DNA of 64,000 bases from a virus (taxonomy: Duplodnaviria; Heunggongvirae; Uroviricota; Caudoviricetes): IMG/VR virus record IMGVR_UViG_3300024246_000004, positions 27,446-91,445 of that record, one strand, 5' to 3'. The notes under the pieces were generated by a model. It made no database searches, was not told the origin of the DNA, and saw nothing but the letters and a program-made list of their open reading frames with translations. Shown one piece after another: positions 9,699 to 62,774 of this stretch; positions within the stretch are counted from its first letter, which is position 1; each line of letters begins with the position of its first letter. Position numbers and translations under genes: made by a program.

Positions 9699-9699
9699 C

Positions 9700-9994: not shown

Positions 9995-10012
9995 GCATGA
10001 AAGGGGGCGGTT

Positions 10013-31888: not shown

Positions 31889-31956
31889 CTGAGCAGCGCT
31901 CTGCCTCTGAGCTACCCTGAGTCGCCGCACACCTCCGTGGCGCGTCGGCTCCCACC

Positions 31957-47517: not shown

Positions 47518-47597
47518 GACTGCCCCCTTCATGGATTGCGGCGTGAGGATCATGGGTTTCGAGAGTACTGTGGCCGCAATGGGGACTAACGTATACC

Positions 47598-47632
47598 AGA
47601 AAGGAGCTGGACGCTACACGATATCGTCCAGC
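47598..47632 (-). terminator. 11-bp-stem hairpin GGAGCTGGACG / CGTCCAGCTCC, followed on the coding strand by GGTATACGTTAGTCC
   Basis: Seen directly; a terminator-then-promoter arrangement between the HTH gene and the rnl-pnkp operon. Confidence 0.5.
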
Positions 47633-47814
47633 TCCTCGCCCCGCGCCATGCCCTTCACGAGAAGACCCATGATCATTGAGCGGGCGAAGCGGTACTGGCC
47701 GCCTGGAGTCAAACACGTCGGCTCAAGCTGGCCGCGCTTCACCCACGCGCACACGGTCTTCGTGCTCACGCCGAACAGCTCCGCCACCTCGCCGGAGCGC
47801 ATGAGCTTATCCAC
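47614..47814 (-). CDS. MerR/Xis-family HTH DNA-binding protein
   Basis: GEVAELFGVSTKTVCAWVKRGQL helix-turn-helix. Confidence 0.6.
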   Translation of the reverse strand: MDKLMRSGEVAELFGVSTKTVCAWVKRGQLEPTCLTPGGQYRFARSMIMGLLVKGMARGEELDDIV

Positions 47815-47820
47815 CGTCGC

Positions 47821-48129
47821 CTACTCTCCAGGGTGGATGGCCGCAGCAGCATCCCTCAGCTTGCGCGCCAGACCGCTGCGCACCGCCGTCAGGTCGCTCG
47901 CCAGCTGCTCCTTGACCAGGCGCCCCTGCTCGCGCAGGTCGTCCATGGCGGACGGCGCGGCGTCCTGGGGCTGGATCTCCGCCAACCGCCTCTCCAGCTC
48001 CTCGACCTCGGGGATCAAGGTCTTGAGGGACACGGCGATGGCCCTGAGGGTGCTGGCGGGCGCGGTGCTCGGTCCATCGGCCAGTTCCAGGACGATCTCA
48101 AGCTTCGCGCTTGTCGTAACGAGTCCCAC
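47821..48129 (-). CDS. Hypothetical protein
   Basis: ORF. Confidence 0.45.
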   Translation of the reverse strand: MGLVTTSAKLEIVLELADGPSTAPASTLRAIAVSLKTLIPEVEELERRLAEIQPQDAAPSAMDDLREQGRLVKEQLASDLTAVRSGLARKLRDAAAAIHPGE

Positions 48130-48147
48130 GACAACTCCTTTCGATAG

Positions 48148-48199
48148 GGCCCGGCGGCGGGGCGAGGTAGGTCGTCGAGTCCTCCTTGGCCGCCGGGCC
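48148..48199 (-). terminator. 11-bp GC-rich hairpin GGCCCGGCGGC / GCCGCCGGGCC adjacent to a CTTCTAACGTACTAC motif
   Basis: Seen directly. Confidence 0.45.
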
Positions 48200-48211
48200 G
48201 CTTCTAACGTA

Positions 48212-48523
48212 CTACGAGACGTTCAAGTGGGCCGCTTCCACGGCCGCGTCCGACTTCGCCTGGAGGAGGTCTTCCTCCCAGGCGAATGTCGGTCTGTGCG
48301 CCGTGGAGACGAACCGGAAGTTCTGGCGGCCGACACGGCTGCCCTGCACATCACGGTACAGGTACACCATGACGCCGCCCTCCACCGGCTCGCTGGCCGC
48401 CTTCCATAGCGCGCGGTCGGTTTCCTTGCGCATCCTGTCTTGGCGTGAACCCCGGATGACCAGCATCATGGCGAACACCACGATGCCGATCACCGGGACC
48501 GCCACGATGACGGCGTCGCCCAT
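48212..48523 (-). CDS. Membrane protein
   Basis: N-terminal hydrophobic helix. Confidence 0.45.
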   Translation of the reverse strand: MGDAVIVAVPVIGIVVFAMMLVIRGSRQDRMRKETDRALWKAASEPVEGGVMVYLYRDVQGSRVGRQNFRFVSTAHRPTFAWEEDLLQAKSDAAVEAAHLNVS

Positions 48524-48526
48524 GGC

Positions 48527-49570
48527 TTACTGAGTCGCCAGATTCAGGCCGCTGCCGCTACCGAGAGATAGCAGCCCCTTCGGGAGCGCGCCCAGTTCGT
48601 CGATCGTCTGGCACGCCGGGCAGTTCTTGTAGCCCGCCTCCTTGGCCGCGTTCGCCTCGGCCTGGAGCTGCGCCTGCTTGACCAGGGCCTGCTGCTTCGA
48701 GACCTCCGCGTACGCCGCCTGTGCGTCGTTGACCGCGCCCTGCACGTTGCTCGGCAGCGAGACGCGCACGATCGTGAACCGCACGCCGGTCAGGAACTGG
48801 AACGGCTTGCCGCCGTGCTTGGCGAGGTCCGAAGCGTCCACCGCCGTGTTCAGCTGAGTGTCCAAGTCCTGCTGCAACGTGGCGTTGATCTTGTCCTGCA
48901 CGGCCGCGATGTTGCCGTTGTTGTTCACGCCGCCGGTGACCACGGCCGCCTGCTGCGTCGAGTTCTGCACCAGCGCACACGCGCTGTCCAGCTCGGCGCA
49001 GGACGTCTGCGCCACGAGCTCGCGCAGGTCGTTGTTCAGGATCGGCCGTACCGCCACGTCGATGAACGCGCCCCACCCCTGGTCACCGTCGTAGGCGTGG
49101 AACGCGTTGCCGTTGTCGGTGTAGGTGCGGGTGCCGTACAGATTGTCGAACACGCCGAGGGTCTGGTGGTCGAGGTTCAGGCTGTAGTACAGAGTGCCCT
49201 CGATGCCCATCTCCACGCCGTCGGAGCTCGGCGTCTGCACGACGTCCACGCCCACCTTGTCGCCCTGGTTCGGGTCGGCCGAGATCGTGTACGTACGCTG
49301 CTGCGCCGGGTACGTGTGGATCGTGGAGTAGATGCCCGTGTTGGTCATGCTGCTCTGCGGATCCAGGAAGCCGCGCTCGTTGGAGTTCGAGAACCAGCCT
49401 CCGTTGCGCTCCACGCCGATGTGTCCCGCGTCCATGCTCTGGAACGCACCGATCCACGGGAACAGGAAGATCATCCCGACGGTGACGCCGACGACGCCCA
49501 GCAGGCCGCAGCCGACGAGCTTCGCCGAAACCTCCGGCACGCCGGACGTGTTGCGCGAGTAACCGCTCAT
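48527..49570 (-). CDS. Membrane-anchored protein, possibly SPFH/band-7-like, with C-terminal coiled coil
   Basis: N-terminal TM helix, beta-rich middle, Ala/Gln-rich C-terminus; SD GGAGGGGTGT-ATG. Confidence 0.4.
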   Translation of the reverse strand: MSGYSRNTSGVPEVSAKLVGCGLLGVVGVTVGMIFLFPWIGAFQSMDAGHIGVERNGGWFSNSNERGFLDPQSSMTNTGIYSTIHTYPAQQRTYTISADPNQGDKVGVDVVQTPSSDGVEMGIEGTLYYSLNLDHQTLGVFDNLYGTRTYTDNGNAFHAYDGDQGWGAFIDVAVRPILNNDLRELVAQTSCAELDSACALVQNSTQQAAVVTGGVNNNGNIAAVQDKINATLQQDLDTQLNTAVDASDLAKHGGKPFQFLTGVRFTIVRVSLPSNVQGAVNDAQAAYAEVSKQQALVKQAQLQAEANAAKEAGYKNCPACQTIDELGALPKGLLSLGSGSGLNLATQ

Positions 49571-49598
49571 ACACCCCTCCATTCATTCGATGCTTCTC

Positions 49599-50498
49599 TT
49601 ATCCCCCGGGCGCGTTCACCGTGACTTTCGCGCTGAATAAGGCCCGGAAGTTCAATCGCGGCGGCTGGATGATGGGTTCCGGTTCACCTTTGGCCGCGAA
49701 GCCTGTGTGCCAGCCGTGGAACTCGCTGGGGCGCGGCTCCTGCACGGCTGGGGCCTCCTCGAACGAGGGCAGCGGCGGAATGTGCCTCGCCAGCCACGCA
49801 TCCGGAGCGGCGGTCATCGAGGGAGCGTCCTGCATGAGCCACCGGACATCGACGCTGCCGAGTTCCTGGCGTACACAGACCCGGCCGTAGCGGAACGCCT
49901 TCGGCTCGTCGATCCAGTAGACGCCCTTCTCCTGCTCCAGTTTGTCCTCCAGTTCGACCCCGCCGAGGCCCTGGATCTCGCCGTGGGGGAAGTGTGCCCG
50001 TGCCAACATGATCTTGGAGTTGCGCTCCGTGTCGCGCTGCCGCCACGCGAAGTAGTTTGCGACTTCGACGGCGTTCGGAAGCGGGAAGACCCGTGCGTCG
50101 AACATGCCGGGGCGGCGCAGGATGACGCCGGGTTCGCGCGAGTAGCCGAGGAACGCCAGGGTGGCGATGGCGGAGCTGATGGACGCGATCTTCTGGACGC
50201 GTCCGCCGAACCACGGCTGGGTGCGGTAGTCCTCGTACCCACATACCAGGACACTGACTTCGTCGGACTGCTGGTAGGCGAATACCGCGCCGCCGATCTC
50301 GGCGCACAGCGCCTGGGCGACGTATCCCATGTACCGGGCCACGACCGTGTCGAACGGCTTGTCGGCACCGCGCAGCAGGGTGTGGAACGCCCGGCCGTCC
50401 ACGCGGATGATCGCAGGCAGGTAGCGGGGCAGGATGCTGCCGGTTGCGGCCTCGTAGGCCTTCATCCGGTCACCGAGACCAGTTCCGTCGCTCGCCAT
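49599..50498 (-). CDS. Thg1-like protein (tRNA-His guanylyltransferase family; 3-prime-5-prime polymerase for tRNA 5-prime end repair)
   Basis: MKAYEAATGSILPRYLPAIIRVDGRAFHTLLRG...FAYQQSDEVSVLV matches the Thg1/TLP N-terminal catalytic core; SD GAATGGAGGCGCT-ATG. Confidence 0.65.
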   Translation of the reverse strand: MASDGTGLGDRMKAYEAATGSILPRYLPAIIRVDGRAFHTLLRGADKPFDTVVARYMGYVAQALCAEIGGAVFAYQQSDEVSVLVCGYEDYRTQPWFGGRVQKIASISSAIATLAFLGYSREPGVILRRPGMFDARVFPLPNAVEVANYFAWRQRDTERNSKIMLARAHFPHGEIQGLGGVELEDKLEQEKGVYWIDEPKAFRYGRVCVRQELGSVDVRWLMQDAPSMTAAPDAWLARHIPPLPSFEEAPAVQEPRPSEFHGWHTGFAAKGEPEPIIQPPRLNFRALFSAKVTVNAPGG

Positions 50499-50569
50499 AG
50501 CGCCTCCATTCGTGAGCCGGGGACCGACGGCGGTCCGATCATGGGAATCGCAGTTCCTTGGGCCGTCGG

Positions 50570-50725
50570 TGTGCATAACGTATCACGTTCACTTCAGTTC
50601 TCGCAACCGCCCCCGGACGCACAGTGCACTGGGCTTCGGGTCGTCGATGGTCCGGGAGCGGCCGGTCGCGGAGGAGGGCTGGGTCTCGCTTGACCTCTGG
50701 TGACCGGCATAACGTATCACGCCTG
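50570..50725 (+). promoter_or_regulatory. Two direct copies of GGCATAACGTATCACG (50575 and 50708) in the divergent region between the Thg1-like gene and a rightward 4-gene unit
   Basis: Seen directly; 133 bp apart. Confidence 0.5.
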
Positions 50726-50834
50726 TACGCCCAAAGGAATGAACCTCCTACTATCCACACACGAAAGAGCGTATGTTGGTCGCGTAACGACGACAGGAGG
50801 CACGGTGGAGCGGGAAGAACCCGAACAGGAAGAC

Positions 50835-50972
50835 ATGATCACTCCGGCGATGCAGACCGCCATCTCGACCCACGAGATGTTCACGGCGCTGCGCCAGGCC
50901 GGGTTCTCGCGCAGCGAGGCGCTCACCATCGTCATCGGCATGCTCTCCGCGAACAGCGGATCAGGCGATTGA
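50835..50972 (+). CDS. Small hypothetical protein (45 aa)
   Basis: SD GAACAGGAAGAC-ATG. Confidence 0.4.
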   Translation: MITPAMQTAISTHEMFTALRQAGFSRSEALTIVIGMLSANSGSGD

Positions 50973-50973
50973 C

Positions 50974-51210
50974 ATGTGGCCCAACGACCTCGCCGAGGCG
51001 CAGAACCCGATCACCCGCAGCCTGGTGCGCTTCCATCCGTCAGTGCACATCGAGAACGCCGCGCAGTTCGACTACTTCTACGCCGCCTTCAAGGAATACT
51101 GCGAGGTCGCCTACCGCCTCGCGCACCTCGATCCCGGTCATATCGACGCACCTTACGGCTGGGTGCTGCCTCGTGAACCCCACATGCTTCCGGAGGAAAC
51201 CCGTGGATGA
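50974..51210 (+). CDS. Hypothetical protein
   Basis: ATG overlaps the upstream stop. Confidence 0.45.
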   Translation: MWPNDLAEAQNPITRSLVRFHPSVHIENAAQFDYFYAAFKEYCEVAYRLAHLDPGHIDAPYGWVLPREPHMLPEETRG

Positions 51211-51391
51211 GCCGATCTCCGCTTTCGGACGCCCCTATCACGCCGACGACACCCGCGTGCTGTTCTGCGGTGCCGCCGGTCCCTGGTGCGGCTGGCTGCG
51301 CACGAGCAACAACGAAGCGCAGCACACGCGGTTCGTCGCCGAGCGCGAGGAGCACCAGGACGGCTGCAAGAGCGGCCTGGTACGCCTGTGA
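51203..51391 (+). CDS. Cys-containing small protein
   Basis: SD GGAGGAAACCC then GTG. Confidence 0.45.
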   Translation: MDEPISAFGRPYHADDTRVLFCGAAGPWCGWLRTSNNEAQHTRFVAEREEHQDGCKSGLVRL

Positions 51392-51855
51392 CGACTTGGA
51401 GCAATCTGGCGCGGGTCGTCGAGGCCCGCGCTACACTCCCCAGTCCGGCCGAGCGCAGGCGGTTGCGCATCGACGCGGGCATCACGGTCAAGTCGCTGGC
51501 CCAGGTCCTCGGCATTTCCGTGAGCGCCATGAACTCGCTGGAGCGCGCGGAGAACCCCGGCGAGAAGTACCTGGTGGACTATGTTAACGCGCTCAATACG
51601 ATGCGCCGCCCCGCGCCGGAACCCGCACTCACCACGCAAGAGGCCGCTGAACTGCGCGAGCAGTGGGAGAAGTCCCCCTGCGGGGCCTGCGGAGGCCTAC
51701 ACGTCACGGCCCTGAAAACTCCCGGGGCGTGCCCGCGCATCAAGCGGATCGCCTACGACGCCCAGGGCCGTATGCTCGAAGTCGAATACTGGCCGGACGG
51801 CAAATGGCCGAAAGACGGCATCATCTGGCCGGACGGGATCATGGCGGAAGAGTAG
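51388..51855 (+). CDS. XRE-family HTH transcriptional regulator
   Basis: LRIDAGITVKSLAQVLGISVSAMNSLERAEN HTH; GTG coupled to the upstream stop. Confidence 0.6.
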   Translation: MTTWSNLARVVEARATLPSPAERRRLRIDAGITVKSLAQVLGISVSAMNSLERAENPGEKYLVDYVNALNTMRRPAPEPALTTQEAAELREQWEKSPCGACGGLHVTALKTPGACPRIKRIAYDAQGRMLEVEYWPDGKWPKDGIIWPDGIMAEE

Positions 51856-51861
51856 CCCCGG

Positions 51862-51911
51862 CGCCGCGAGCGCCCTGGTTATCGTTTTTGTCTCGGGCGC
51901 CGGGACGACTA
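51862..51911 (+). terminator. Hairpin CCCGGCGCC...GGCGCCGGG with an internal CGTTTTTGTC
   Basis: Seen directly, after the XRE gene. Confidence 0.4.
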
Positions 51912-51977
51912 AAGTAGCAGGGTCACGTGACATTGACGAGTTCTGGCGCTACGATAACCACGATGGGAGCACTGGCG

Positions 51978-52166
51978 ATGGAAATCCCCCTGCGCCGCAA
52001 GTACAAGTCCGCGAGCGCCAAGAACACGCGTTCGACCAGTAGCACCTCCGGCTCCTCGAAGCAGAAGCGCAAGGGTCAGAGCGTGAAGAACGCGCCGACC
52101 CGTATCCGCGTGCTCGTCTTGGTGGATGGACGCCGCCGCTCCTGGACTTGGCGGGACGTAAACTGA
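51978..52166 (+). CDS. Small basic Lys/Ser/Arg-rich protein (62 aa)
   Basis: SD GGGAGCACTGGCG-ATG. Confidence 0.45.
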   Translation: MEIPLRRKYKSASAKNTRSTSSTSGSSKQKRKGQSVKNAPTRIRVLVLVDGRRRSWTWRDVN

Positions 52167-52168
52167 GC

Positions 52169-52212
52169 GAACCGGCCGCCGCGCTGACCCCCGGCGGCCG
52201 GTTCTATTCTGC
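52169..52212. terminator. Strong bidirectional rho-independent terminator (12-bp stem GAACCGGCCGCC / GGCGGCCGGTTC followed by TATTCT)
   Basis: Seen directly, between convergent genes. Confidence 0.7.
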
Positions 52213-52262
52213 GGCGGATCTTGATATGGGCTACGCGCCTGTTATGGCCGCCAGGCCGCTGC

Positions 52263-53390
52263 TCACTCGTACTCCGTGCCGCCCTTGCGCTCCAGGTAGG
52301 CGTCACTCACGAACTTCAGGATGGCCCGGCCGCCGAGGATGCCCGAACGCCGCTCCGCCATCGAACGGACCACGACCCCCTCGCGCAGGGTGTCCGGGTC
52401 GAGCATGCTCTGCTTGACCTCGGCGAACGCGGCGAGCAGCCCGTAGTCGTACGGCCCCTGATACACCAAGGGTGCGCGGGGAACGCCGGTGCGGTTGGCG
52501 AACGCCCCCAGGTATCCCTCGGAAAGCCAGAACGGCTCGCCCTCCACCGGCACGAGGTACGCGTCGAACAGGGCGTAACCGAGCGTCTCGTTCCGGCTGG
52601 CGTCCGCGCCGTAATGCAAGTCCTGCACGCCTTTGCCGTACACCTCCCCGAACAAGCCGACCGCGCGCACGCCGTAGAACTCTTTGGCCGCCAGCGCGGC
52701 CTCGCGCAGCCGGTACTGGCGCGCGGCGCGCCAGTAGAGGTTGGTCTCCGACTCCTTGAGCGCCAGGCTCTTGCCGCCGAAACCCTTCGAGGAGACGTAC
52801 TCGCGGCCATCCTCGGCCAGCGTGTACAGGCAGCACGTACCGTGGATCTTCTCCGTGGCGACCACCATCTCGCCGGGCGTGAAGACCTCCGGGTAGCGCT
52901 TGACGTTCTCGATCTCGATCCAGCGGATCAAATCCGGTGCCGACTCCACTTCACCAGCCATGCCGACGGGGATTGGCGGAATCCACTTGGTGATGCCGAG
53001 GGCTTCAGCGAAGTCGCTCTCGGGCGTCCAGGGCCCCTCCGATTCCGGCATGGCGTTGGCGGCCCACTCCCACACCTCCCGCATCGCACCCCACTCGAAG
53101 GGGACGCCTTTCGGGCGGCAGACGATGCCCTGGGATAGCTCGCCGCGCAGTCGCACCGCCTTGACGCGGTTCTTCGCCGGGCCCGCGAGCCTGCCGGTCA
53201 GGCCGAGCTCCTCGATGAGCGCATCCGGCAGAACCGCCTGCTCCGGGATGTACAACGCAAGCTCGCCGTCCTTATAGACGCCCTTCGGTACGACGGCGCG
53301 GAACAGGCCCACCTGGGCGAGTTCCAGCAGATCGGCGTTGGGGTGCGGGAAGATCCGCAGCTTCTCGACTTTGACCTCGAACCCTGACAT
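52263..53390 (-). CDS. Rnl2-family RNA ligase with an N-terminal extension
   Basis: Motif I ATEKIHGTCC (KIHGT, as in T4 Rnl2-type ligases); the N-terminal 160 aa are an additional domain. Confidence 0.5.
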   Translation of the reverse strand: MSGFEVKVEKLRIFPHPNADLLELAQVGLFRAVVPKGVYKDGELALYIPEQAVLPDALIEELGLTGRLAGPAKNRVKAVRLRGELSQGIVCRPKGVPFEWGAMREVWEWAANAMPESEGPWTPESDFAEALGITKWIPPIPVGMAGEVESAPDLIRWIEIENVKRYPEVFTPGEMVVATEKIHGTCCLYTLAEDGREYVSSKGFGGKSLALKESETNLYWRAARQYRLREAALAAKEFYGVRAVGLFGEVYGKGVQDLHYGADASRNETLGYALFDAYLVPVEGEPFWLSEGYLGAFANRTGVPRAPLVYQGPYDYGLLAAFAEVKQSMLDPDTLREGVVVRSMAERRSGILGGRAILKFVSDAYLERKGGTEYE

Positions 53391-53400
53391 AAACCCCTAC

Positions 53401-54231
53401 TTACTCGTCGGTGAACGGCAGGTCCACCACCGTCCACGAGCCTTCCTTCGTGTAGCCCGCCCACTGCGCGCCGCTCGGATCGCAGTCCAGGCCGAACACC
53501 CAAGCGTGCCCACCGTCATAGGTGGGAATGCGGTCGGTGTACGGGAAGTGCAGGTGCCCGTGATACAGGCGCTTGGCCTGGAGTTCCGCCAGCGCGTGCT
53601 GGATGCGGCGCTGATTCGGCAGGCAATCGGCCAGGGCCTTGCGGTTCCACGGCGGGTTGGACCCGAACGGTTTGTCGTGACTGAAGATCACGTCCACCGG
53701 CGACGAGTCGGCGTCCATGATCGCCATGAACTGCTCGTCGGTCATCTCCTCCTCGGGGAACCACAGGGTGCCTGAGAAGTCTTTCGGGACGCCCGCCCAC
53801 TGAGCGGCGCGCTTCTCCGACTTCAGCGTGTTGACGTACTCCTCGGTGACGCGCCAGTCCTTGTCCACCGAATACGCCCCGCCGAGGGCGATGAACCGGG
53901 TGTCGGCCCACGTCCACCGGTGCCCGCGCGGCGCATAGCGGACATGCTTGCGGCAGACGAGGAAGCCCTCGTCGTCGCGGTTGTCCCCGTACTTCTCCAG
54001 CACCAGCGATGTCTTGTCGTGGTTGCCGTCGAGAAAGTACAGGATGACGCCGCTGTGCGCGGCGTGCCGCTCCACGTCGTCGAAGAACTTCACGCCGTCG
54101 GCGGTGTGTTCCCAGGCCCCGAAGTCGCCGAGCTGGAAGATCCGGTCGGCGCCAGCTTTCTTGGCCCGGCCCAGCAGGGTGATCACGTGTGTGCAATTGC
54201 CATGAACATCGCCAGCTATCAACAACTTCAC
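53401..54231 (-). CDS. Calcineurin-like metallophosphoesterase
   Basis: GDVHGN, GNHD and GHLH metal-binding motifs; SD GAAAGGGTTGCT then GTG. Confidence 0.7.
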   Translation of the reverse strand: MKLLIAGDVHGNCTHVITLLGRAKKAGADRIFQLGDFGAWEHTADGVKFFDDVERHAAHSGVILYFLDGNHDKTSLVLEKYGDNRDDEGFLVCRKHVRYAPRGHRWTWADTRFIALGGAYSVDKDWRVTEEYVNTLKSEKRAAQWAGVPKDFSGTLWFPEEEMTDEQFMAIMDADSSPVDVIFSHDKPFGSNPPWNRKALADCLPNQRRIQHALAELQAKRLYHGHLHFPYTDRIPTYDGGHAWVFGLDCDPSGAQWAGYTKEGSWTVVDLPFTDE

Positions 54232-54335: not shown

Positions 54336-57300
54336 ATGTCGAACTCCGCGCGCCGCGTACTCCAGTCGGTCAAGGCCGTGAAGCCGTCACCGGCGGTTCC
54401 GGGCTCCGGCTACGGCGTGCCCGGCGGTTCGTACGGATCCGGCATGTCCCCGCTCGTGGCCTCCTACGCCATGCCCGGCATGCCCTACGGCGAGCGGACC
54501 TACGGCACCGCGCTGCCCCGCGACCCGATGGAATTCCTGTCGGGTATGTTCTCGCCGCTCTCCCCGATCCAGCCAGTCGCCATCGACCAGCCGAAGCCCG
54601 GGTTCGATCGGCCCGAGCCGCGCCAGTTCGAGTATCCCGTCAGCTGGAACATGCCGATAGGAGTTCCCGGCTCCGAAGGCCTCAAGCTCGCTAGTTTCGC
54701 CAACCTGCGCTCCATCGCGGACATCTACTCCGTGGCGCGCGCCTGCATCAAACTGCGCATCCAGGAAATCCTCGGCCTGGAGTGGGACATCATCCCCACG
54801 AAAGACGCCGAGAAGAACATGCGCGGCGACGACAAGAAGCACTCGAATTTCCAGAAGCGCCGCAACGAGGCCATGGAATTCTGGCGCAACCCGGACCCGA
54901 ACTACGGCTCGTTCGAGTCCTGGCTCAGCGCCGTCCTTGAGGACATCCTCGTCGTCGATGCGCTCTCGCTCTACGTCCACCCGACGCGGATGCGCGGCAA
55001 GGGCCTGCTCGGCTCCGACGTGGCGTCCCTCGAAGTGATCGCGGGCGAAACCATCAGGCCCCTGCTGGACGTGTCCGGCGGACGGCCCAAGCCACCCAAC
55101 CCCGCGTTCCAGCAGTATATGTACGGGGTTCCGCGCACCGACCTGATGACGGTCATCAACGAAGAGGACCTCGACGGCCTCTCGGACGCGATGGTGGCCG
55201 AATACCGGGGCGACCAGCTGCTTTACCTGCCATATTTCCGCCGTTCTTGGACGCCGTACGGCTTCTCCCCCGTGGAGCAGGCCCTTATTCCGGCCATGAT
55301 GGGAATCCAGCGGCAGAGCTGGCAGCTGGACACCTACTCCGAGGGCACCGTCCCTGCGGTATTCATTTCCGCCGGTGACACGAATTCCACGCCGAACCAG
55401 CTGCGCGAATTGCAGGATGCACTCAACGCCATGGCCGGGGACCCGGCCTGGAAGCACAAGATCATTGTCCTGCCGGGCGGCTCGAAGATCGACCCGATGA
55501 AGCCGCAGGCCCTGGCCGACGCCTTCGATGAGATCATGATGACCCAGATGTGCATGGCGTTCGACGTCATGCCGATGGAGCTGGGCATCGCGCCGAAAGT
55601 CTCGACGACGCAGAGCCCCGGCGCCGCCAACCAGATGGCTAAGGCGAGCGAGCAGGTCAACCAGCGCAAGGCCCTGCGTCCCATGCTCAAGTGGTTGAAG
55701 GCAAGCGTCTTCGACTTCCTCTTGCAGAAGGTATGCAAGCAGGACGACATGCAGTGGATGTGGGAGGGCCTGGAGGAGGGCGTTGACGAGGAGTCCCAGG
55801 TCGGCCTCCTGATCCAGGAGATCAGCTTCGGCCTGCGCTCGATCGACGAAGCGCGCATCTCTCGCGGCGAACAGCCGTGGGGCCTGCCGCTGACCTCCGA
55901 CCCGGTCTACGCCACCCCCAACGGCCTGATGCCCATCGGTTCCATCGATCCCGCCACCGGCATGCCCGCCGCCCTCCAGCCCGAAGTCGCCCCCGGCTCC
56001 GCGCTGCCCGGCGCGAACATGCCCAACGGCGCGTTGGCCGGTACGACGCCGAGCGGCAACCAGTCCTCGACGCGCACCGTCAAGCCGGGCAAGCCGGTGC
56101 GGCTGCCGACCGCCTCCGTGCCGGGCCCCAAGGCCAAGCCGAAGCCGACCAAGCCGTCCGCCGGACCGCGCGTCTCCCCGTCGCACACCGCCCGGGGGTC
56201 CGCGTCGAAAGGTATCGACGGGAAGGCGGCCCTCAAAGAGCTCGACCTGATCCGCAGGCAGCTCAAGAGGGACCGCTCGATCGAGGACTGGCAGCCCAAG
56301 GACGTGCCGCAGCAGGTCATGGACATGCTGCGCGCCGACCTGTGGCGGATGGACGCCGCTGAGGCGATCATGAAGGCCCGCGATGGCGTGTACAAGCTGC
56401 TCAAGGAGCGCGCCGGACAGGGCACCGCCGACCGCGAGAGCGCGATCATGCACGTGCAGTCCCGCGTCGCCACCGACCTGCGCACCCTCGCAGACCAGGT
56501 GGAGAACGGGAAACTGTCCACGGCCGACTTCCTCCAGCGGGCCACCGACACGATGCGAGCCGGAATCCGCGCCGGTCTCCAGGCCGGTGCATACGCCGCT
56601 ATAGATCAGGGCCGCACCGAGAAGCACACCCAGCTGCGCATCCAGGGCGAGACGTGGTCCAACATCGTCAAGGACGACGGCGACGAGGGCGACGGCTACG
56701 ACGAGGCGCTGCACGGCGACTCGCCCTACAACGCCTACCTCGACCAGCTGGCCAGCACGGAAGCCGACCGGCAGTCCGGCTACCTCAGCGGCCTGCTGCG
56801 CGACATCCTTGGCGCGCTGGGCATGAAGGACTGGCTGGACAAGCTCGGCTCGCGCCTGGACCTGTACGCCGCCCAGGTGCGCTCCGCGTACGAACAGGGC
56901 TACGGCTACACGTACGCGGCGATGAACCCGTCCGGCTCGGTGGTCTACACCTGGTTCACCACGTCCGCCAAGCCGTGCGCACTGTGCTCGGCGAAGGACG
57001 GCCAGCAGTTCAGCGAAGACCAGCTGCCCGGTTTCCCGGGTCAGGGCGGCTTCGGCGACCCCGGCGACATCGCGGGGGCCGAACTCGCCATCTGCATGGG
57101 CGGCGTGAACTGCAAATGCTACCTCAGTGCCACCACCATCCCCGACGGAACCGGGGGCGGTGGGTTCTTCAGCGCGGCCCGCAACGCCTGGAACGCCGCG
57201 CTCAGCAGCATCCTGGGCAAATCCGCCCAGGAGATCACCAGCCACGACCACATCAGCCATTCCCACGCGGATGAGACGCACGAGGTCTATGCATACCTCG

Positions 57301-57695
57301 CGCGCCACTACCCGGCGGGTTCGCTGGAGTGGGTCAAGGCAGCGCGTTGGCATGGACCGGTGGAGATCAAGCTGGACCGGATCAACATGGGCCGCCGCGC
57401 TGGCGGGGCGAGGGATCCGAACAAGGTCAGGATGATCTCCTTCGCGATCGAGGACGGCCACAAGATCGACCCGATCGTGGTCGTGCGGGTGCCCGGGAAG
57501 AACAAGTACCAGGTCGCCGACGGCTGGCACCGCACGCTCGCCGTCAAGGACAGCGGGCGCAAGTCGATCATGGCCTGGGTCGGCGACGTGGACAGCGACT
57601 CCACCTTCTCCCCCGAGGAGATGGGCTCCGAGAAGCTGAACACCGACAAGAAGTCTCCGGGCCTTGAGAACAACCGCAAGGACTCCGGTGGCTAA
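54336..57695 (+). CDS. Portal protein fused to a MuF-like head-morphogenesis region and a C-terminal ParB-like nuclease domain (1119 aa)
   Basis: About 500-aa portal-like N-terminus first in the structural unit; Pro/Ala-rich linker; Cys-containing MuF-like segment (CALCSAKDG); C-terminal ...IVVVRVPGKNKYQVADGWHRTLAV... is ParB-N-like. Confidence 0.6.
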   Translation: MSNSARRVLQSVKAVKPSPAVPGSGYGVPGGSYGSGMSPLVASYAMPGMPYGERTYGTALPRDPMEFLSGMFSPLSPIQPVAIDQPKPGFDRPEPRQFEYPVSWNMPIGVPGSEGLKLASFANLRSIADIYSVARACIKLRIQEILGLEWDIIPTKDAEKNMRGDDKKHSNFQKRRNEAMEFWRNPDPNYGSFESWLSAVLEDILVVDALSLYVHPTRMRGKGLLGSDVASLEVIAGETIRPLLDVSGGRPKPPNPAFQQYMYGVPRTDLMTVINEEDLDGLSDAMVAEYRGDQLLYLPYFRRSWTPYGFSPVEQALIPAMMGIQRQSWQLDTYSEGTVPAVFISAGDTNSTPNQLRELQDALNAMAGDPAWKHKIIVLPGGSKIDPMKPQALADAFDEIMMTQMCMAFDVMPMELGIAPKVSTTQSPGAANQMAKASEQVNQRKALRPMLKWLKASVFDFLLQKVCKQDDMQWMWEGLEEGVDEESQVGLLIQEISFGLRSIDEARISRGEQPWGLPLTSDPVYATPNGLMPIGSIDPATGMPAALQPEVAPGSALPGANMPNGALAGTTPSGNQSSTRTVKPGKPVRLPTASVPGPKAKPKPTKPSAGPRVSPSHTARGSASKGIDGKAALKELDLIRRQLKRDRSIEDWQPKDVPQQVMDMLRADLWRMDAAEAIMKARDGVYKLLKERAGQGTADRESAIMHVQSRVATDLRTLADQVENGKLSTADFLQRATDTMRAGIRAGLQAGAYAAIDQGRTEKHTQLRIQGETWSNIVKDDGDEGDGYDEALHGDSPYNAYLDQLASTEADRQSGYLSGLLRDILGALGMKDWLDKLGSRLDLYAAQVRSAYEQGYGYTYAAMNPSGSVVYTWFTTSAKPCALCSAKDGQQFSEDQLPGFPGQGGFGDPGDIAGAELAICMGGVNCKCYLSATTIPDGTGGGGFFSAARNAWNAALSSILGKSAQEITSHDHISHSHADETHEVYAYLARHYPAGSLEWVKAARWHGPVEIKLDRINMGRRAGGARDPNKVRMISFAIEDGHKIDPIVVVRVPGKNKYQVADGWHRTLAVKDSGRKSIMAWVGDVDSDSTFSPEEMGSEKLNTDKKSPGLENNRKDSGG

Positions 57696-57702
57696 GAAGT
57701 GG

Positions 57703-57927
57703 ATGCGCCCTGCCCCGTGGCAGGCGACAGCGGAGCTGATCGAGAGGATCGGCCGCTGCGCGAGCTGCGGGGCCACCGCCGTCTGGTGCCTGGTCTCGGA
57801 GGACACCGCGTTCGCGTTCTGCGGCCCGTGCTGCTGCCGCTGGTCGCACCCCTCCTCGCCGTCCATGGACGAGGACGACCCCTACCAGTCATGCCCCGAG
57901 TGCTCCAAAGCCGAGGTCACTGCATGA
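57703..57927 (+). CDS. Cys-rich Zn-ribbon small protein
   Basis: CASCG...CGPCCC...CPEC. Confidence 0.45.
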   Translation: MRPAPWQATAELIERIGRCASCGATAVWCLVSEDTAFAFCGPCCCRWSHPSSPSMDEDDPYQSCPECSKAEVTA

Positions 57928-58133
57928 ACGTATTCAAGGTCACCTATGTCGAGAAGGACGCCTCCACGACGTCCGACCAGCAGATGGCCGTCGATTCCAT
58001 CGCAGCCCTCGACTACGAGGTGGGCACGGACTTCGTGGCCTTCCTCGGCGACAACCACCAGGTCGTTGCGGCGTACGCGGTCCACCGCGTCGTCTCCATC
58101 CTCACTGAAACCTCCGGCGCGCAGGCGTCGTAA
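57924..58133 (+). CDS. Hypothetical small protein
   Basis: ATG overlaps the upstream stop. Confidence 0.45.
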   Translation: MNVFKVTYVEKDASTTSDQQMAVDSIAALDYEVGTDFVAFLGDNHQVVAAYAVHRVVSILTETSGAQAS

Positions 58134-58163
58134 CCCATTCCCGACAGCCACCGGAGGAGATGT

Positions 58164-60875
58164 GTGGCAGTAACCGACAAGATTTACGCCTCGTTCCCCA
58201 TTGTGAAGTCCGAGACCGACGCCGACGGCAACCTGGTCGTCTACGGCAAGGCCACCAGCGGACTGGTCGATTCCGACCGCCAGATCATCGACCCCGCGTG
58301 GTCGGCCAGTGCCCTCCAGAAGTGGATGTCCAGCGGCGCGAACCTGCGGGTTCAGCACCAGGCGCGGCGGGACCCTGCGGGTAAAGGCCTGGTGGTCGAG
58401 CCGGACCGCGACGGCGACGGCGGCCACTGGCTCAAGGCCCTCGTGGTCGAGCCGGTTGCCCAGAAGCTCGTCCAGCACGGTGTGCTGCGCGCGTTCAGCG
58501 TCGGCATCTCGAACCCGGTGATCAACCGGGACATGACCGGCAAGGCCGCTGGCGGCATCATCACCGGCAACGACGAGACCGAGATCTTCGAGGTCTCCCT
58601 CGTGGACCGGCCCGCCAACAAGGAGTGCGGCTTCACGCTGGCCAAGTCGGCGGGCGACGAAGGCGACTGGGGCGACGTCGGCGACTTCGACAAGCTCCTG
58701 TTCGACGCCCAGGCCGCCAAGCTGGCCAAGAGCGAGTCGGGCGCGGCGCCGGATTCCGAGGACGACTCCACGGGCACCGACACGGACGACGGCAGCATCG
58801 CGGACGACGAGAAGGACGACGAGGAGACTCAGAAGGCTTACCAGGCCGCTCACCGCACCTGGAAGTCCGTCGAGCCGTCGCTGGCGAAGGCCGCCGGGCC
58901 CACCGAGTACCTCCAGGCCCGCGCCGCGTACCAGCGGTGGCTAGCCGAGGGTGAAGGCGAAGGCCTGGTCGAGGGCACGTACGGCACCCAGGCCGGTCTC
59001 GCGCAGTTCGTGGCGAAGCGCAACTTCGACATGGGTGTGGGCGGCGGCGTGGACCGCGACAAGATCCCGGCCGAGGACTTCGGCGACCCGGCGAACCGCA
59101 AGTACCCGATCGTTACACCAGGCGACGTGAAGGACGCGGGTGGGCTGATCGGCCACGCCGCCGACCCGGACGCCGTCAAGGCCCGGATCATCGCCATCGC
59201 CAAGCGCAAGGGCGCCGCGTTCGTCGCCCAGCTCCCGAAGGCCTGGAACGTGAAGACCGAGGAGCACGAGGACGCGCTAGAGAAGGCCAAGGGCAAGGGC
59301 AAGAAGAAGCCAGCCTTCAACGGAGCCGCCAAGCCGTTCGACGGCCAGGACGACGACGGCGACGGCAAGGACGCCGACAAGCCTGCCGAGAAGTCCGTGG
59401 ATACCGCCGAGAAGGCGGGCGGCAAGACGTGCCCGAAGTGCGGCAAGGTCTTCCACATGGACACGAAGGTCAAGGCCTGTACTTCGTGTGGCACCAAGCT
59501 GCCCAAGGGCAAGGCGATCAAGGCCGCCGAGATCGCGAACCTGATCGTGGACCTTAAGGGGCAGTCGTTCATGTCCGAGGCCGAGATGACCGACCTGGTC
59601 AAGCAGATCGGCGAACAGCTCGGCAAGAAGAAGCGCCCGCTTCCCGCCGACACCAAGCCCGCTGGCACGCACCGCGAGCCCGACGGCACCCTCGTGGAAG
59701 GACTGGAGCACATGGCGGGCATGCCCACGACGCCGGACTCCACGGCCGACCACACCCCGGCCTCCGTCAAGGACGCCGAGCCGGTCTCGTACTCGGTCAA
59801 GCGCATGCACGACGTGTTCTGTGCCGCTTACCACGAGGACGACGTGCGCGCCGAGTACCCATCCCTCAAGGGCCTGGGCGATGCGGCGGACGAGGCGTAC
59901 TGGTCGCGCGAGCTGGCCAAGGCCAACGCCGCCGGGGACGCCGAAGCCACAGCTGAACTGTCCTACATGGTGCAGGCCGCGCAGCACCTCAAGGGCGCCG
60001 ACCCGTTGGCCGTGGCCGACGGCCGCGCGCTGCTGCACAAGGCGTTCGCGGACCTCTACCCGAACACCGCCAAGCCGACGCCGACCGACATGTCCCCGGG
60101 CAAGTTCCAGCGCCCGTACCTGTCCGCCGGACGTGCGCCGCTCACCGCGACGGGCGCTTCGCCCCGAGTTCCCCCGAGCACGCACACCCCGGAGCCGCAG
60201 GACTTCCAGCGCGGCCTGATCACCTCGGGCCACCAGGCGACTCCTCCGGCCGCCAAGGGCGGCAACAACCCGAACGGCTACAACGCCCGGGACTACTACG
60301 GCCCGGCAGCCCGCGAGGCCGCGAAGAACGCCATGCAGTCGCAGCACGACCGCCTGGTGGGCTCGCAGCCGGACCTGTGCCCGATGTCCCCCAGCCGTTC
60401 CGTCATGCCGCCGGACCTGTCCGCCGGTTCCGTCCCGACGCCCGTCACGCCTCCCGCGACCAACACCGCCCCCGGCGAGAAGTCGGTGGACGGCGGCGGC
60501 GAAGTCGTCACCTTGCTCAAGGCTCTGCTCACGCAGACCGAGAAGCAGAACAAGAAGATCACCAAGGCCCTCGACGCTCAGCTCGCCGAGGCCAACGAGA
60601 AGATCGTCGAACTGTCCAAGCAGATCGATCAGCTGGGAAGCCAGCCAGATCCAGCCCAGGCCCCAGTGCGGGGAGTGGTTCGGAAGTCGGCTGTCCACGG
60701 CGAGCCCGCTCCGGTGGAGCGTCGCAGCCTCGTGGACGAGGCACAGCAGCACGTCGAGCAGGAGCGCCAGGAGCGTCTGGCCTACCTCACGCGCCTGACC
60801 AAGTCGGGAGACCCGGCCATGCGCCAGAAGGCCGAAGACGCCATCGAGCGTCTCGTGCTCGAAAAGGCCGAATAA
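58164..60875 (+). CDS. Prohead protease (HK97/S78-like) fused to a scaffold-like coiled-coil region (903 aa)
   Basis: The N-terminal 170 aa resemble caudoviral prohead proteases; the middle is acidic and Lys-rich; the C-terminal coiled coil ...LLKALLTQTEKQNKKITKALDAQLAEANEKIVELSKQIDQL is scaffold-like. Confidence 0.55.
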   Translation: MAVTDKIYASFPIVKSETDADGNLVVYGKATSGLVDSDRQIIDPAWSASALQKWMSSGANLRVQHQARRDPAGKGLVVEPDRDGDGGHWLKALVVEPVAQKLVQHGVLRAFSVGISNPVINRDMTGKAAGGIITGNDETEIFEVSLVDRPANKECGFTLAKSAGDEGDWGDVGDFDKLLFDAQAAKLAKSESGAAPDSEDDSTGTDTDDGSIADDEKDDEETQKAYQAAHRTWKSVEPSLAKAAGPTEYLQARAAYQRWLAEGEGEGLVEGTYGTQAGLAQFVAKRNFDMGVGGGVDRDKIPAEDFGDPANRKYPIVTPGDVKDAGGLIGHAADPDAVKARIIAIAKRKGAAFVAQLPKAWNVKTEEHEDALEKAKGKGKKKPAFNGAAKPFDGQDDDGDGKDADKPAEKSVDTAEKAGGKTCPKCGKVFHMDTKVKACTSCGTKLPKGKAIKAAEIANLIVDLKGQSFMSEAEMTDLVKQIGEQLGKKKRPLPADTKPAGTHREPDGTLVEGLEHMAGMPTTPDSTADHTPASVKDAEPVSYSVKRMHDVFCAAYHEDDVRAEYPSLKGLGDAADEAYWSRELAKANAAGDAEATAELSYMVQAAQHLKGADPLAVADGRALLHKAFADLYPNTAKPTPTDMSPGKFQRPYLSAGRAPLTATGASPRVPPSTHTPEPQDFQRGLITSGHQATPPAAKGGNNPNGYNARDYYGPAAREAAKNAMQSQHDRLVGSQPDLCPMSPSRSVMPPDLSAGSVPTPVTPPATNTAPGEKSVDGGGEVVTLLKALLTQTEKQNKKITKALDAQLAEANEKIVELSKQIDQLGSQPDPAQAPVRGVVRKSAVHGEPAPVERRSLVDEAQQHVEQERQERLAYLTRLTKSGDPAMRQKAEDAIERLVLEKAE

Positions 60876-60902: not shown

Positions 60903-62774
60903 GTGGCGGCCCCTCACCCCGTAAGGAGGGGTATGGCAGTCAACGAAGTCGTCAGGGCGCTCGGAGCAGCCCCCGACGAGCGCTGGGTCGCGTCGGACAC
61001 CGACGCCACGCGCTACAGCTACGCCGCCGAGATGCTCGGCGAGAAGATGCCCACCCTGGTCAAGGGCGCCGGTTACGCCCGTCCCGGCGGCAACAAGCCG
61101 CTGAGCGACGACGACCAGATCTTCAAGGCGTCGATGAAGGCTGAGACGGCCTTCATGAAGTCGATGAAGAACGGCATCGACAACCCCGAGGGCGTCATCA
61201 AGTCGTTCTCCCCCGAGTTCGCCGGACACTTCGGCGCGTTCATGGCGGCCTCGCCGCAGAACCAGCAGATGGCCCGCATGGTGGACTCCCTGTCCGCCCA
61301 GCTGTCCACCATCCTGGACAAGTCCGTCACGCTGACAAGCCCTCTGGGCTCGGGTTTCGTGCCGTTCAACCTGGTCAGCCCCTCCCGGCTGATCTACCCG
61401 GTCTACTCGCCGATCCGCAACAAGATGCCCCGCACCCAGGGCCAGGGCACCTCGTACCGCGCGAAGGTGATCACGGGTGTCAGCGGCTCGCAGACCGGCC
61501 CGTCCGGCGGCAAGTTCCTCGACCTCGCCATCCCGGAGCTCGTGCAGGGCGGCGGCTCGTTCTCCAACTGGCCCCTGAACCTGCCCGGTGCGGGCACTCA
61601 GGACGCTGTTGACCTCAACATCCCGTACAAGTTCTTCGGCCAGTCCGAGAACCTGTCCTGGCTGGCCCAGTTCTCGGGCCAGGGCTTCGAGGACATCAGC
61701 GCGCTGGCGAACCTCCTGCTGCTCCAGGAGTTCATGCTCAACGAGGAGGCGATGTTCCTCGAAGGAACGTCCGTCGCCTACGTCGCGCCGACCAACCCGA
61801 CGCTGACGGCCCGCGCCGCGAACGCCGGTGAGACCGCCCTGACCGGCGTGACCACCAACGTGTTCGTCAAGGTCACCGGCGTCAACTACTTCGGCGAGAC
61901 GGTCGCGCAGGCCTCCGGCGCTTCCGTCGCCTGGTCCGCTGGCCAGGTCGTGGACGTCAGCCTGGTGCCGGAGTCCGGCGTCGTGTCCTACAACATCTAT
62001 GTGACCACCGGTGCGTCTGCGGGCACGTACTTCATCATGGCCTCCGGCGTCGGCGGCCTGAACTTCACCCTCCAGGGCGCGCTGCCGACCTCCGGCGCGA
62101 ACCCGCCGTCCTCGGACACCACGTCCTCGACGACGTACCGCCTCGAAGGCATCATCCCGACGCTGACCGGCCACTCCGCCGGTTCGTCCAACCCGTACCC
62201 GAGCAACTGGCAGGGCGGCTACGTCAACCAGTCGGTCGGCGACACCCTCAAGACGTCGGTCATCAACAACGCCCTCCAGGCGATGTGGGACGGCACCGGC
62301 GCGGGCATCAGCACCTACGGTTCGTTCCGCGCGGACCCGGCCGAGCTGATCGCCGAGGGCGGCGACGTCATGCGCCTGTCCAACGACATCGTGCAGACCG
62401 GCGCCAACACGAACTACCGCCTGTTCATCGACCAGGGCGAGGTCCCGGGCACGCGCCTCGGCGCGGCGGTGAGCGAGTTCCAGAACCCGATCACCCGCTC
62501 CGTCGTGCGCATCGTCGTGCACCCGTGGCTCACGCAGGGCACCGCCCTGCTCATGAGCTACACCCTGCCGATGGCGTGGTCGAACGTCAGCAACTGCTGG
62601 GAGTTCAACACCGTTCAGGACTACCTGAGCATCTCCTGGCCCGTGATCGACGCGACCTTCCGGTACTCGCTGTTCACGTACGGCGCCATGATCGCCAACG
62701 CGCCGCAGTACTCCGGTCTGCTGTCCGGCATCCAGAAGACCGACCGTTCCGGCTCTACCGGAACCTGGTCGTAA
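60903..62774 (+). CDS. Major capsid protein (putative, 623 aa)
   Basis: Sits directly after the protease-scaffold gene; large Gly/Ser/Thr-rich beta protein. Confidence 0.5.
   Translation: MAAPHPVRRGMAVNEVVRALGAAPDERWVASDTDATRYSYAAEMLGEKMPTLVKGAGYARPGGNKPLSDDDQIFKASMKAETAFMKSMKNGIDNPEGVIKSFSPEFAGHFGAFMAASPQNQQMARMVDSLSAQLSTILDKSVTLTSPLGSGFVPFNLVSPSRLIYPVYSPIRNKMPRTQGQGTSYRAKVITGVSGSQTGPSGGKFLDLAIPELVQGGGSFSNWPLNLPGAGTQDAVDLNIPYKFFGQSENLSWLAQFSGQGFEDISALANLLLLQEFMLNEEAMFLEGTSVAYVAPTNPTLTARAANAGETALTGVTTNVFVKVTGVNYFGETVAQASGASVAWSAGQVVDVSLVPESGVVSYNIYVTTGASAGTYFIMASGVGGLNFTLQGALPTSGANPPSSDTTSSTTYRLEGIIPTLTGHSAGSSNPYPSNWQGGYVNQSVGDTLKTSVINNALQAMWDGTGAGISTYGSFRADPAELIAEGGDVMRLSNDIVQTGANTNYRLFIDQGEVPGTRLGAAVSEFQNPITRSVVRIVVHPWLTQGTALLMSYTLPMAWSNVSNCWEFNTVQDYLSISWPVIDATFRYSLFTYGAMIANAPQYSGLLSGIQKTDRSGSTGTWS

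Follow-up and report, generated by a model that had tools for sequence, protein, structure and literature searches.

SPP1 gp7 and Mu gpF belong to the MuF class of minor head proteins, and the gene directly after the portal gene is the classical MuF position. The SPP1 protein binds the portal, each capsid holding one or two copies of it, and efficient infection depends on it (PMC5576092). Fusions of MuF with toxins, the MuF polymorphic toxins (Jamet et al. 2017, PMC5576092), and a MuF "phage-capsid-like" toxin delivery system (Zhang et al. 2012, PMC3482391) have been described, and packaging and injection have been predicted for effector enzymes fused to MuF or portal proteins (PMC3482391, PMC5512222, PMC5576092). 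Portal-MuF, protease-MuF, and protease-capsid fusions occur in Microbacterium phages (PMC7302621). In addition, polyvalent proteins and virion-associated DdrB-like ParB domains have been reported, with proposed roles in nucleoside triphosphate (NTP) sensing or as DNases (Iyer et al. 2017, PMC5512222). Here, two large head-assembly genes are analyzed in a 64,000-nucleotide stretch of the Caudoviricetes record IMGVR_UViG_3300024246_000004 from IMG/VR (positions 27,446 to 91,445 of the record; hereafter, the window). One encodes a protein of 1119 amino acids (aa) in which a portal is followed by a MuF-like module and a ParB/Srx-fold domain, and the other encodes a 903-aa protein that begins with a prohead protease domain.

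The head-morphogenesis operon of a large (contig of at least 91 kb), uncultured, high-GC phage begins at this locus. Its host is probably a member of Actinomycetota; the host range was taken from the source names of the homologue records because scans of genome contigs gave pattern matches that failed tblastn confirmation. The best explanation overall, which we consider rather probable, is that the portal carries the MuF-like module and the ParB/Srx domain as capsid cargo and that the protease-fusion gene supplies the prohead protease. The order in the window is portal fusion gene, protease-fusion gene, and major capsid protein (MCP)-like gene, with the following features:

54336..57695, + strand, portal/MuF-like/ParB-Srx fusion gene, 1119 aa, ATG start (open reading frame [ORF] list, homologues, and G+C content at third codon positions [GC3])
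54696..56015, + strand, portal core, residues ~121-560 (Pfam Phage_portal, phrog_2662, and tblastn to annotated portals)
56016..56270, + strand, basic Pro/Lys/Gly-rich tether, residues 561-645 (composition)
56271..57170, + strand, MuF-like module with a helical part and a Cys-cluster core, residues 646-945 (invariant motif, hhalign, and positional interchange)
57258..57644, + strand, ParB/Srx-fold domain, residues ~975-1103, with DGWHR at 1062-1066 (profile, fold, and motif)
57703..57927 and 57924..58133, + strand, two small genes of 74 and 69 aa between portal and protease (gene calls on an identical Logan contig)
58164..60875, + strand, gene for prohead protease plus multi-module internal/scaffold-like protein, 903 aa, GTG start
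60933..62774, + strand, probable major capsid protein, 613 aa by gene call or 623 aa from a GTG at 60903

The fusion partners of the ParB/Srx subfamily provide the strongest evidence for capsid cargo. A profile search of 1.84 billion cluster representatives returned 4812 matches at E values of ≤1e-3, 774 at ≤1e-10, and 222 at ≤1e-30, and many of the best 150 ParB/Srx matches lack this portal clade. A Pfam scan of 72 such proteins from the best 150 identified portal partners, including Phage_portal (7), Phage_portal_3 (2), Portal_Mu (2), and the P23-45 portal barrel (1), and other head-interior partners, including Phage_Mu_F (8), Peptidase_S78_2/XkdF (2), Mu-like prophage protease I/Mu-like_Pro (2), and DUF6582 (4). 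Effector-type partners were ADP-ribosyltransferase (ART) (4), NUDIX (4), 2H (4), Zeta_toxin (1), and an anthrax-LF-like peptidase (1), and partners in neither group were LAGLIDADG_3 (2), Hint_2 (2), RyR (2), and AAA_33 (1). In two proteins (P0242 and P0244), tandem ParB/Srx domains are followed by a clear DUF6582 domain (E 2e-10) and then by a Mu-like protease domain. The subfamily also stands alone, sometimes in tandem. It is fused to three further Pfam portal families (four with PF04860), to MuF, and to two prohead-protease families. The non-effector structural partners that could be identified are without exception built into the interior of the procapsid, which indicates that residence in the capsid lumen is the defining property of the ParB/Srx domain. 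This pattern marks the subfamily as capsid-lumen cargo, with delivery into the lumen as the common denominator. The original prediction of a ParB domain inside the capsid is strengthened by this attachment of one subfamily to several unrelated head-interior proteins.

Domain presence in relatives was counted over the best 120 of 710 homologues of the 1119-aa portal fusion and over 120 listed homologues, of 697, of the 903-aa protein. The ParB/Srx segment is found in 98 of the 120 portal homologues, and the 21 IMG/VR loci examined, which were retrieved by ParB-domain pattern and whose longer contigs measure 85-160 kb, all encode it together with the portal in one ORF. Minimal relatives of ~830 aa consist of a portal, a tether, and a ParB/Srx domain (proteins P0028 and P0029 and loci L006, L009, and L010), and in long relatives the ParB domain is internal, with NUDIX, ADP-ribosyltransferase, 2H/Acb1-like, MuF, or intein domains arranged around it in varying order. 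Both the vertical conservation with the portal, while the flanking NUDIX, ART, and 2H domains vary, and the existence of the minimal proteins speak for the main rival of the cargo reading, namely, a structural or packaging role in which a ParB/Srx ring stays on the portal crown, serves assembly, packaging, headful sensing, or retention of the last-packaged DNA end, for example, as an NTP-gated clamp or plug, and is not delivered. We regard this role as possible but doubtful. The subfamily also occurs on MuF alone, on prohead proteases, or as a free-standing protein, which ill fits a portal-specific mechanical role, and the frequent company of obvious effector enzymes suits cargo better.

One relative of the portal fusion (P0119) contains, at residues 634-749, a 2H phosphoesterase domain that also matches Pfam Acb1 (E 8e-6), a family directed against the cyclic-oligonucleotide-based antiphage signaling system. 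Its sequence hints that some portal-borne cargo in the clade may degrade cyclic-nucleotide defense signals.

The C-terminal domain of the portal fusion has a ParB/Srx fold with an intact DGxHR phosphate-binding motif, as revealed by profile matches to PDB entries (E about 1e-6), by a Foldseek search of the AlphaFold2 (AF2) model in which all of the top 50 PDB matches were ParB/Srx folds, and by the invariance of DGxHR. A profile of 38 homologous segments (alignment A1) matched SerK (E 7.9e-7), SbnI (5.7e-6), Noc (5.8e-6), ParB (9.4e-6), and Srx (5.8e-3) in the PDB, with KorB also among the matches, and the Foldseek template modeling score with Srx was 0.70, normalized to the target. Pfam ParB_N matches 9 of the 38 family members (best E 7e-6), the window sequence alone falling below the cut-off (E 0.033), and NCBIfam matches were SerK (2.7e-5) and parB_part (1.8e-3). 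The motif YQVADGWHRTLAV occupies residues 1058-1070 of the 1119-aa protein. In the alignment of 38 sequences, D-G-x-H-R, two Trp, a further Gly, and one Pro are invariant, and D-G-x-H-R is also invariant in a set of 72 sequences. At its N terminus, the domain bears a distinctive extension of two helices in which Trp residues are invariant. The ParB-like C terminus of the original prediction is thus borne out by the ParB_N, PDB profile, and Foldseek matches.

The partition protein ParB, a CTPase clamp, is characterized by the box II motif GERRxRA, the box III motif ENLxR, and a helix-turn-helix (HTH) DNA-binding domain. In alignment A1, DGxHR stands in place of GERR, a family-wide box III is absent, the domain ends ~40 aa past the motif, and neither an HTH nor a dimerization domain is present. 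Judged by these features, the domain appears not to be a partition ParB. The best structural matches include the NTP-dependent DNA clamps ParB, Noc, and KorB, a finding that would suit a portal-bound structural role, whereas the lack of an HTH domain and of a conserved box III counts against it.

In the original prediction, a ParB-like nuclease was also suggested that could act on host DNA or defense upon ejection, here taken as degradation of host DNA or of defense-system DNA. Pfam PF02195 formerly bore the name "ParB-like nuclease domain," and automated JGI annotations still read "Phage portal protein/ParB-like nuclease domain." Both the support for a capsid-cargo pattern and the non-specific DNase or nicking activity of Osa, a ParB-methylase, and GmrS (ParB/Srx) are consistent with this proposal (PMC5512222). 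However, "nuclease" is a legacy family name, and the closest relatives of known structure are kinases and NTP-binding proteins (SerK, SbnI, Srx, and the ParB/Noc CTPases). No nuclease-specific motif or feature was found in the domain sequence. An hhalign comparison of profile A1 with the virion-associated DdrB of phage P1 detected no similarity (E 0.12 over 13 columns in the wrong region), the single-sequence target limiting its power, and PADLOC gave no match for the ParB/Srx or MuF-like parts. Moreover, 12 active copies of a non-specific DNase beside the phage's own genome would need inhibition, and no mechanism for it is evident. A nuclease role is therefore considered quite improbable, and in our opinion the domain should be treated neither as a partition protein nor as a proven nuclease.

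A second ParB-like gene, predicted originally at 308-847 (+ strand, 179 aa), was confirmed by a match to phrog_723 (E 8e-34); its product also matches the N-terminal part of a PADLOC type II methyltransferase model (E 2.4e-8). Its relationship to the domain on the portal is only distant (hhalign E 6e-5, 26% identity over 66 columns), and G-N-H-T stands at the site of D-G-W-H-R.

The N-terminal part of the 1119-aa protein is a true portal, as had been predicted. Pfam PF04860 (Phage_portal) matches residues 133-507 (E 5.9e-13; 49.1 bits against a curated cut-off of 39.1), and phrog_2662, annotated "portal," matches the protein with an E value of 1.8e-47. The closest cultured phages identified by tblastn share 24-30% identity in the portal part, including Thermoanaerobacterium phage THSA-485A, Brevundimonas phages, Arthrobacter phages Mufasa8 and Sonali, and Thermus phages. 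Searching both single proteins against the PDB with phmmer gave just a marginal portal match and chance matches to ribosomal zinc ribbons. Inteins (Hint/LAGLIDADG_3) interrupt the portal core at about residues 400-410 in several relatives (P0002, P0021, P0039, P0059, P0106, P0113, P0259, P0276, P0290, L011:4746-8408, and L013:3696-8447), and the window portal has none.

The tether at residues 561-645 contains 14% Pro, 11% Ala, and 11% Gly and has a net charge of +14 and a pI of 11.9. The original description of a Pro/Ala-rich linker holds for its composition but misses its chief property, which is that it is basic. Among the best 120 homologues, the tether is matched only in the four closest (P0002-P0005) and in three weak matches. 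Its strongly basic character also accords with a structural or packaging role.

Residues 646-945 are predicted to fold into a long bundle of helices and, after it, a small beta structure with a Cys cluster. In homologues of this module, C881, C884, C920, C926, and C928 are invariant within the motif W-x-T-x(4)-C-x2-C ... P-G-x-P-G ... C-x-G-G-x2-C-x-C, for which the canonical MuF core pattern offers the comparison W.T..C..C...G...P..H..CRC. When residues 639-980 were searched against Pfam, PF04233 (MuF) was not matched even at an E value of ≤1, and the module has no Pfam match of its own and no structural match in the PDB. A family of 84 mid-core sequences, compared by hhalign with 13 canonical MuF segments taken from related portals, aligned over the Cys motif with an E value of 1.7e-4 and a probability of ~50% over 51 columns. 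In addition, canonical PF04233 MuF and the MuF-like module alternate in related loci, with canonical MuF being fused after ParB in L008 and L014 and encoded by the next gene in L006, L009, and L011. The module may therefore be called MuF-like, with marginal homology to canonical MuF. Of the predicted Cys-containing MuF-like segment, the Cys cluster is borne out by its invariance in homologues, whereas the family assignment lacks a Pfam match.

Both large genes are real fusions. The two ORFs of the original prediction (54336-57695 and 58164-60875) are present in the ORF list at the sizes claimed; a GTG at 54273 is an alternative start of the portal fusion gene (product of 1140 aa), and a GGAGGAG ribosome-binding site lies 4 nt before the GTG start of the 903-aa gene. 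A frameshift artefact, in which separate genes for portal, MuF, and ParB or for protease and scaffold were joined by assembly or sequencing errors, is excluded by collinear full-length homologues in independent assemblies and by the continuous in-frame GC3, which stays at 0.85-0.94 in each 300-nt block of the two genes and does not leave this range in the linkers. The 1119-aa product has an identical database entry, P0001, with records from JGI, Logan, and ENA; it is encoded on two contigs, a 91,445-nt metagenome contig and a 42.8-kb Logan contig. Collinear full-length relatives of the portal fusion include P0003-P0005 (71-75% identity, independent assemblies) and P0007, P0010, P0015-P0017, and P0022 (45-52% identity at 97-99% coverage). 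The 903-aa protein has ten relatives with 66-100% identity at ~100% coverage and dozens with ~40-47% identity over ~99% of its length. The JGI, ENA, Logan, and NCBI assemblies that encode full-length relatives include Streptomyces, Amycolatopsis, and Actinoallomurus genomes; dozens of collinear proteins with 45-75% identity derive from unrelated samples and isolate genomes. Nothing was found in favor of an artefact, which was considered solely since these functions are usually encoded by separate genes, and its probability is negligible.

Neither of the two small genes between portal and protease has a PHROG match, and a gap of comparable size separates the two large genes of locus L002. The 74-aa product (57703-57927) contains six Cys in C-x2-C/CC-type spacing, as judged by eye from the translation. 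The product of 60933-62774 matches phrog_13692 (E 1.9e-63) and weakly matches Pfam SU10_MCP (E 2.6e-4). It is probably the major capsid protein. Its gene follows the protease gene as in THSA-485A, where the order is TerS, TerL, a 789-aa portal, a 661-aa protease plus extension, and a 470-aa protein. There is no terminase gene directly upstream of the portal, where the neighbors lie on the opposite strand; the rest of the window was only partly scanned for it.

Protease-scaffold fusions or nested genes are exemplified by P2 gpO, lambda C/Nu3, and Mu gpI/Z. The 903-aa protein has the following parts:

58206..58643, + strand, HK97/S78-type prohead serine protease domain, residues ~15-160, with His65 and Ser112 (profiles, fold, and residues)
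residues 161-235, + strand, acidic stretch with a net charge of -14
59064..59249, + strand, DUF6582-like small alpha/beta module, residues ~301-362 (Pfam DUF6582, E 0.0085)
59418..59507, + strand, zinc ribbon CPKCG...CTSCG, residues ~419-448 (Pfam Zn_ribbon_3, E 4.9e-4)
59769..60083, + strand, conserved helical domain, residues ~536-640, with invariant H549-D550-C553
60498..60872, + strand, C-terminal long helices, residues 779-902 (AF2 helices at 779-826, 856-878, and 884-902)

An HK97/S78-type prohead protease makes up the N-terminal ~160 aa. The family profiles match below their curated cut-offs: TIGR01543 (proheadase_HK97) matches over profile positions 19-139 of 142 with 21 bits against a curated 59 (E 2.9e-4). 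PF04586 (Peptidase_S78) reaches an E value of 0.037 with the window protein and matches 13 of 24 homologous N-domains (best 4e-4), and S78_2 matches 4 of the 24 (best 7e-5). A fold search of BFVD gave 97 matches at E values of ≤1e-3, of which nearly all named ones are prohead proteases, and the N-domain shares 30-35% identity with annotated prohead proteases of THSA-485A, Alicyclobacillus phage MMB025, and T5-like phages. His65 and Ser112, invariant in 88 sequences, would by analogy form the catalytic pair. The protease domain, the DUF6582-like module, and the helical domain were all modeled by AF2 with predicted local distance difference test (pLDDT) values above 90. The HK97-type N terminus of the original prediction agrees with the fold, the invariant residues, and the identity to prohead proteases. 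A Foldseek search of the entire multi-domain 903-aa model against the PDB gave nothing significant and no S78-type match, and the family profile found no protease in the PDB, its one weak match being the crAss-like phage cargo protein gp45 (7qog_M; residues 282-404, E 0.002).

The remainder of the protein had been described as a long acidic coiled-coil scaffold. An acidic stretch and long C-terminal helices are indeed present, but several conserved folded modules, joined by Pro-rich linkers, occupy the ~540 aa that separate the two. The N-domain and mid-domain are present in 120 of the 120 listed homologues, and the other modules are present in 92 to 117. The DUF6582-like module, with the motif D-F-x-x-P-x-x-R-x-Y/F-P-I-x-T-P-G-D-V-x-D-A, is the part with the weak resemblance to gp45; it is found again in P0242 and P0244 and may be a general capsid-interior module. 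The four zinc-ribbon Cys, at residues 423-443, are nearly invariant, and the ribbon is found in 97 of the 120 homologues. The helical domain, the best-conserved part after the protease, has no match in Pfam or the PDB. Conserved helical segments contain two invariant M-H-D...C motifs, H549-D550-C553 (window 59808-59822) and H728-D729-C739 (60345-60380). These motifs and the zinc ribbon go beyond a simple scaffold role and could be metal sites or cleavage or recognition elements. The C-terminal helices, which are kept in 117 of the 120 homologues and weakly match the C terminus of phrog_9427 ("head maturation protease"), are in the model a candidate capsid-binding scaffold end. A scaffold role of the extension is a candidate function backed by its position, the protease fusion, and these helices; no homology of the extension to a characterized scaffold was found. 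A tblastn search of residues 172-903 against cultured phage records gave no match. A scan for a nested scaffold start in the style of lambda C/Nu3 yielded one weak candidate, a GTG at 59844 (residue 561) with an upstream GAGGA.

Portals are dodecamers, and the C-terminal crown faces the capsid lumen in all solved portals. Given this architecture, each virion would hold as many as 12 MuF-like and ParB/Srx units, tethered at the portal vertex beside the DNA end. The lumen-delivery fusion pattern of the subfamily suggests that the ParB/Srx domain may be a packaged nucleotide-dependent enzyme or a DNA-associated factor. Such a protein could work on the phage genome or next to it during ejection or early in infection; handling of DNA ends and counteraction of host defense are two examples of what it might do. 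The co-encoded protease probably digests its own extension, and it may release the portal-borne cargo by cutting in the tether.

Several points weigh against delivery of portal-borne cargo. The homology of the middle module to MuF is weak, and box III of the ParB CTPases is not conserved. Sequence features of the ParB/Srx domain neither favor nor exclude a nuclease, since none distinguishes the nuclease members from the kinases and NTPases, and no biochemical activity can be assigned to the domain from them. Retention, processing, and ejection of the extension are predictions. The domain is conserved rather than polymorphic in the portal clade, which suits a structural or packaging role equally. 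No immunity-like gene was identified in a search limited to a PHROG scan of the two small downstream ORFs. Twelve copies of a ~560-aa extension amount to much protein for one vertex, and the AF2 models are of moderate confidence overall, with a mean pLDDT of about 73.

A broader speculation, which we regard as unlikely, is that the ParB/Srx domain is a nucleotide-gated capsid-lumen module of many uncultured phages, situated at the portal or brought in by MuF or protease, which grips or processes the genome end, enters with the DNA, and protects it or disarms nucleotide-based defenses. If true, this would add a new class of portal accessory and give the ParB/Srx fold a biological role that is new to it.

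Outside the head operon, the window contains the following features:

1093-9996, + strand, array of 36 tRNA genes for 19 amino acids, none for Tyr
45491-54186, - strand, RNA-repair/tRNA-maturation gene block directly upstream of, and divergent from, the portal gene
45491-46390, - strand, PNKP (AAA_33 plus HAD_PNKP)
46390-47553, - strand, T4 Rnl1-type RNA ligase
48527-49570, - strand, Band_7/SPFH protein
49599-50498, - strand, Thg1-like enzyme (tRNA-His guanylyltransferase family)
52263-53390, - strand, RNA ligase (PF09414/PHA02142)
53401-54186, - strand, metallophosphoesterase-like protein (motifs read by eye; weak LpxH-type matches only)

The first 10 kb, in which the tRNA array lies, have a lower GC content (0.60-0.635) than the rest of the window (about 0.65-0.70). 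Minus-strand tRNA calls by ARAGORN at 21554-21655 (102 nt) and 31849-31921 were rated doubtful. Together, the RNA-repair block and the tRNA array suggest heavy investment in countering tRNA-targeting host defenses. Almost all of ten context ORFs lack a PHROG match, and the phage belongs to a poorly sampled lineage.

Proteins that are packaged in the head and coinjected with DNA are the first viral activities to meet host defenses. To our knowledge, few of them have been characterized; known examples include T4 Alt and internal proteins, P1 Dar, and SPP1 gp7. The locus points to a large, uncultured, mostly soil and actinobacterial phage clade, with hundreds of cluster representatives, in which the portal itself carries enzymes, and to one ParB/Srx subfamily that has repeatedly become joined to proteins entering the procapsid, whatever their kind. 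DGxHR provides a defined set of residues for mutation, the location of the domain is a testable prediction, and prophage relatives in culturable Streptomyces and Amycolatopsis strains make the experiment feasible. Such relatives include P0006 and P0009, from prophages of Streptomyces sp. NPDC054933 and NPDC001404, and P0100 from Amycolatopsis cynarae. Annotations as "ParB-like nuclease" should not be taken literally.

The packaging of enzymes in the phage head is a known theme, and the pairing of ParB/Srx with a portal was not found described in the literature searched. A search of titles and abstracts found no fusion of a portal with a ParB-like nuclease, and a megablast search of the 6.5-kb region against 50,697 phage records gave no match. 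The fusions as such are less unusual than first supposed, since portal-MuF, MuF-effector, and protease-scaffold fusions have already been described (PMC7302621, PMC5576092, PMC5512222). Like the MuF toxin systems, the window protein combines a head-interior carrier with a C-terminal enzymatic domain, and its relatives carry ART, NUDIX, and 2H domains; unlike in those systems, the carrier is the portal, and ParB/Srx is conserved rather than variable. The term "ParB" is absent from the main text of one study and is not among its listed MuF cargoes (PMC5576092), and the list of trafficking modes for Tox-ParB in another does not include MuF (PMC3482391). P1-type polyvalent proteins likewise have ParB/Srx-superfamily domains among late or virion genes and are predicted to be injected (PMC5512222), but the partners here are portal, MuF, and protease rather than metallopeptidase-centered giants, and the window protein has one enzymatic cargo domain only.

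With SerK, SbnI, sulfiredoxin, the ParB/Noc/KorB CTPases, and PadC, the portal-borne domain shares the fold and the DGxHR or GxxR phosphate-binding helix N terminus. Unlike the solved members, it has no accompanying DNA-binding or dimerization domain, and Trp occupies the position of the catalytic Cys of Srx. The 903-aa protein resembles 600- to 700-aa "prohead protease" proteins in BFVD (such as I3VYW8 of THSA-485A), which have an HK97/S78-fold N terminus with a long extension and are encoded between portal and major capsid genes, and it differs from them in its length and in extra modules without a match in cultured phages. None of the phages in INPHARED has this ParB/Srx domain at a tblastn E value of ≤0.01. 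The portal is only 27-28% identical to those of the actinophage portal-MuF fusions, and its MuF-like part lacks the Pfam match. However, the arrangement is the same in Arthrobacter phage Sonali, whose protein is annotated "portal and MuF-like fusion protein," and, as in Microbacterium phages of clusters EA3/EA5/EA8 and EB (PMC7302621), a MuF-type module is borne on the portal C terminus at the start of the structural operon in phages of high-GC Gram-positive hosts.

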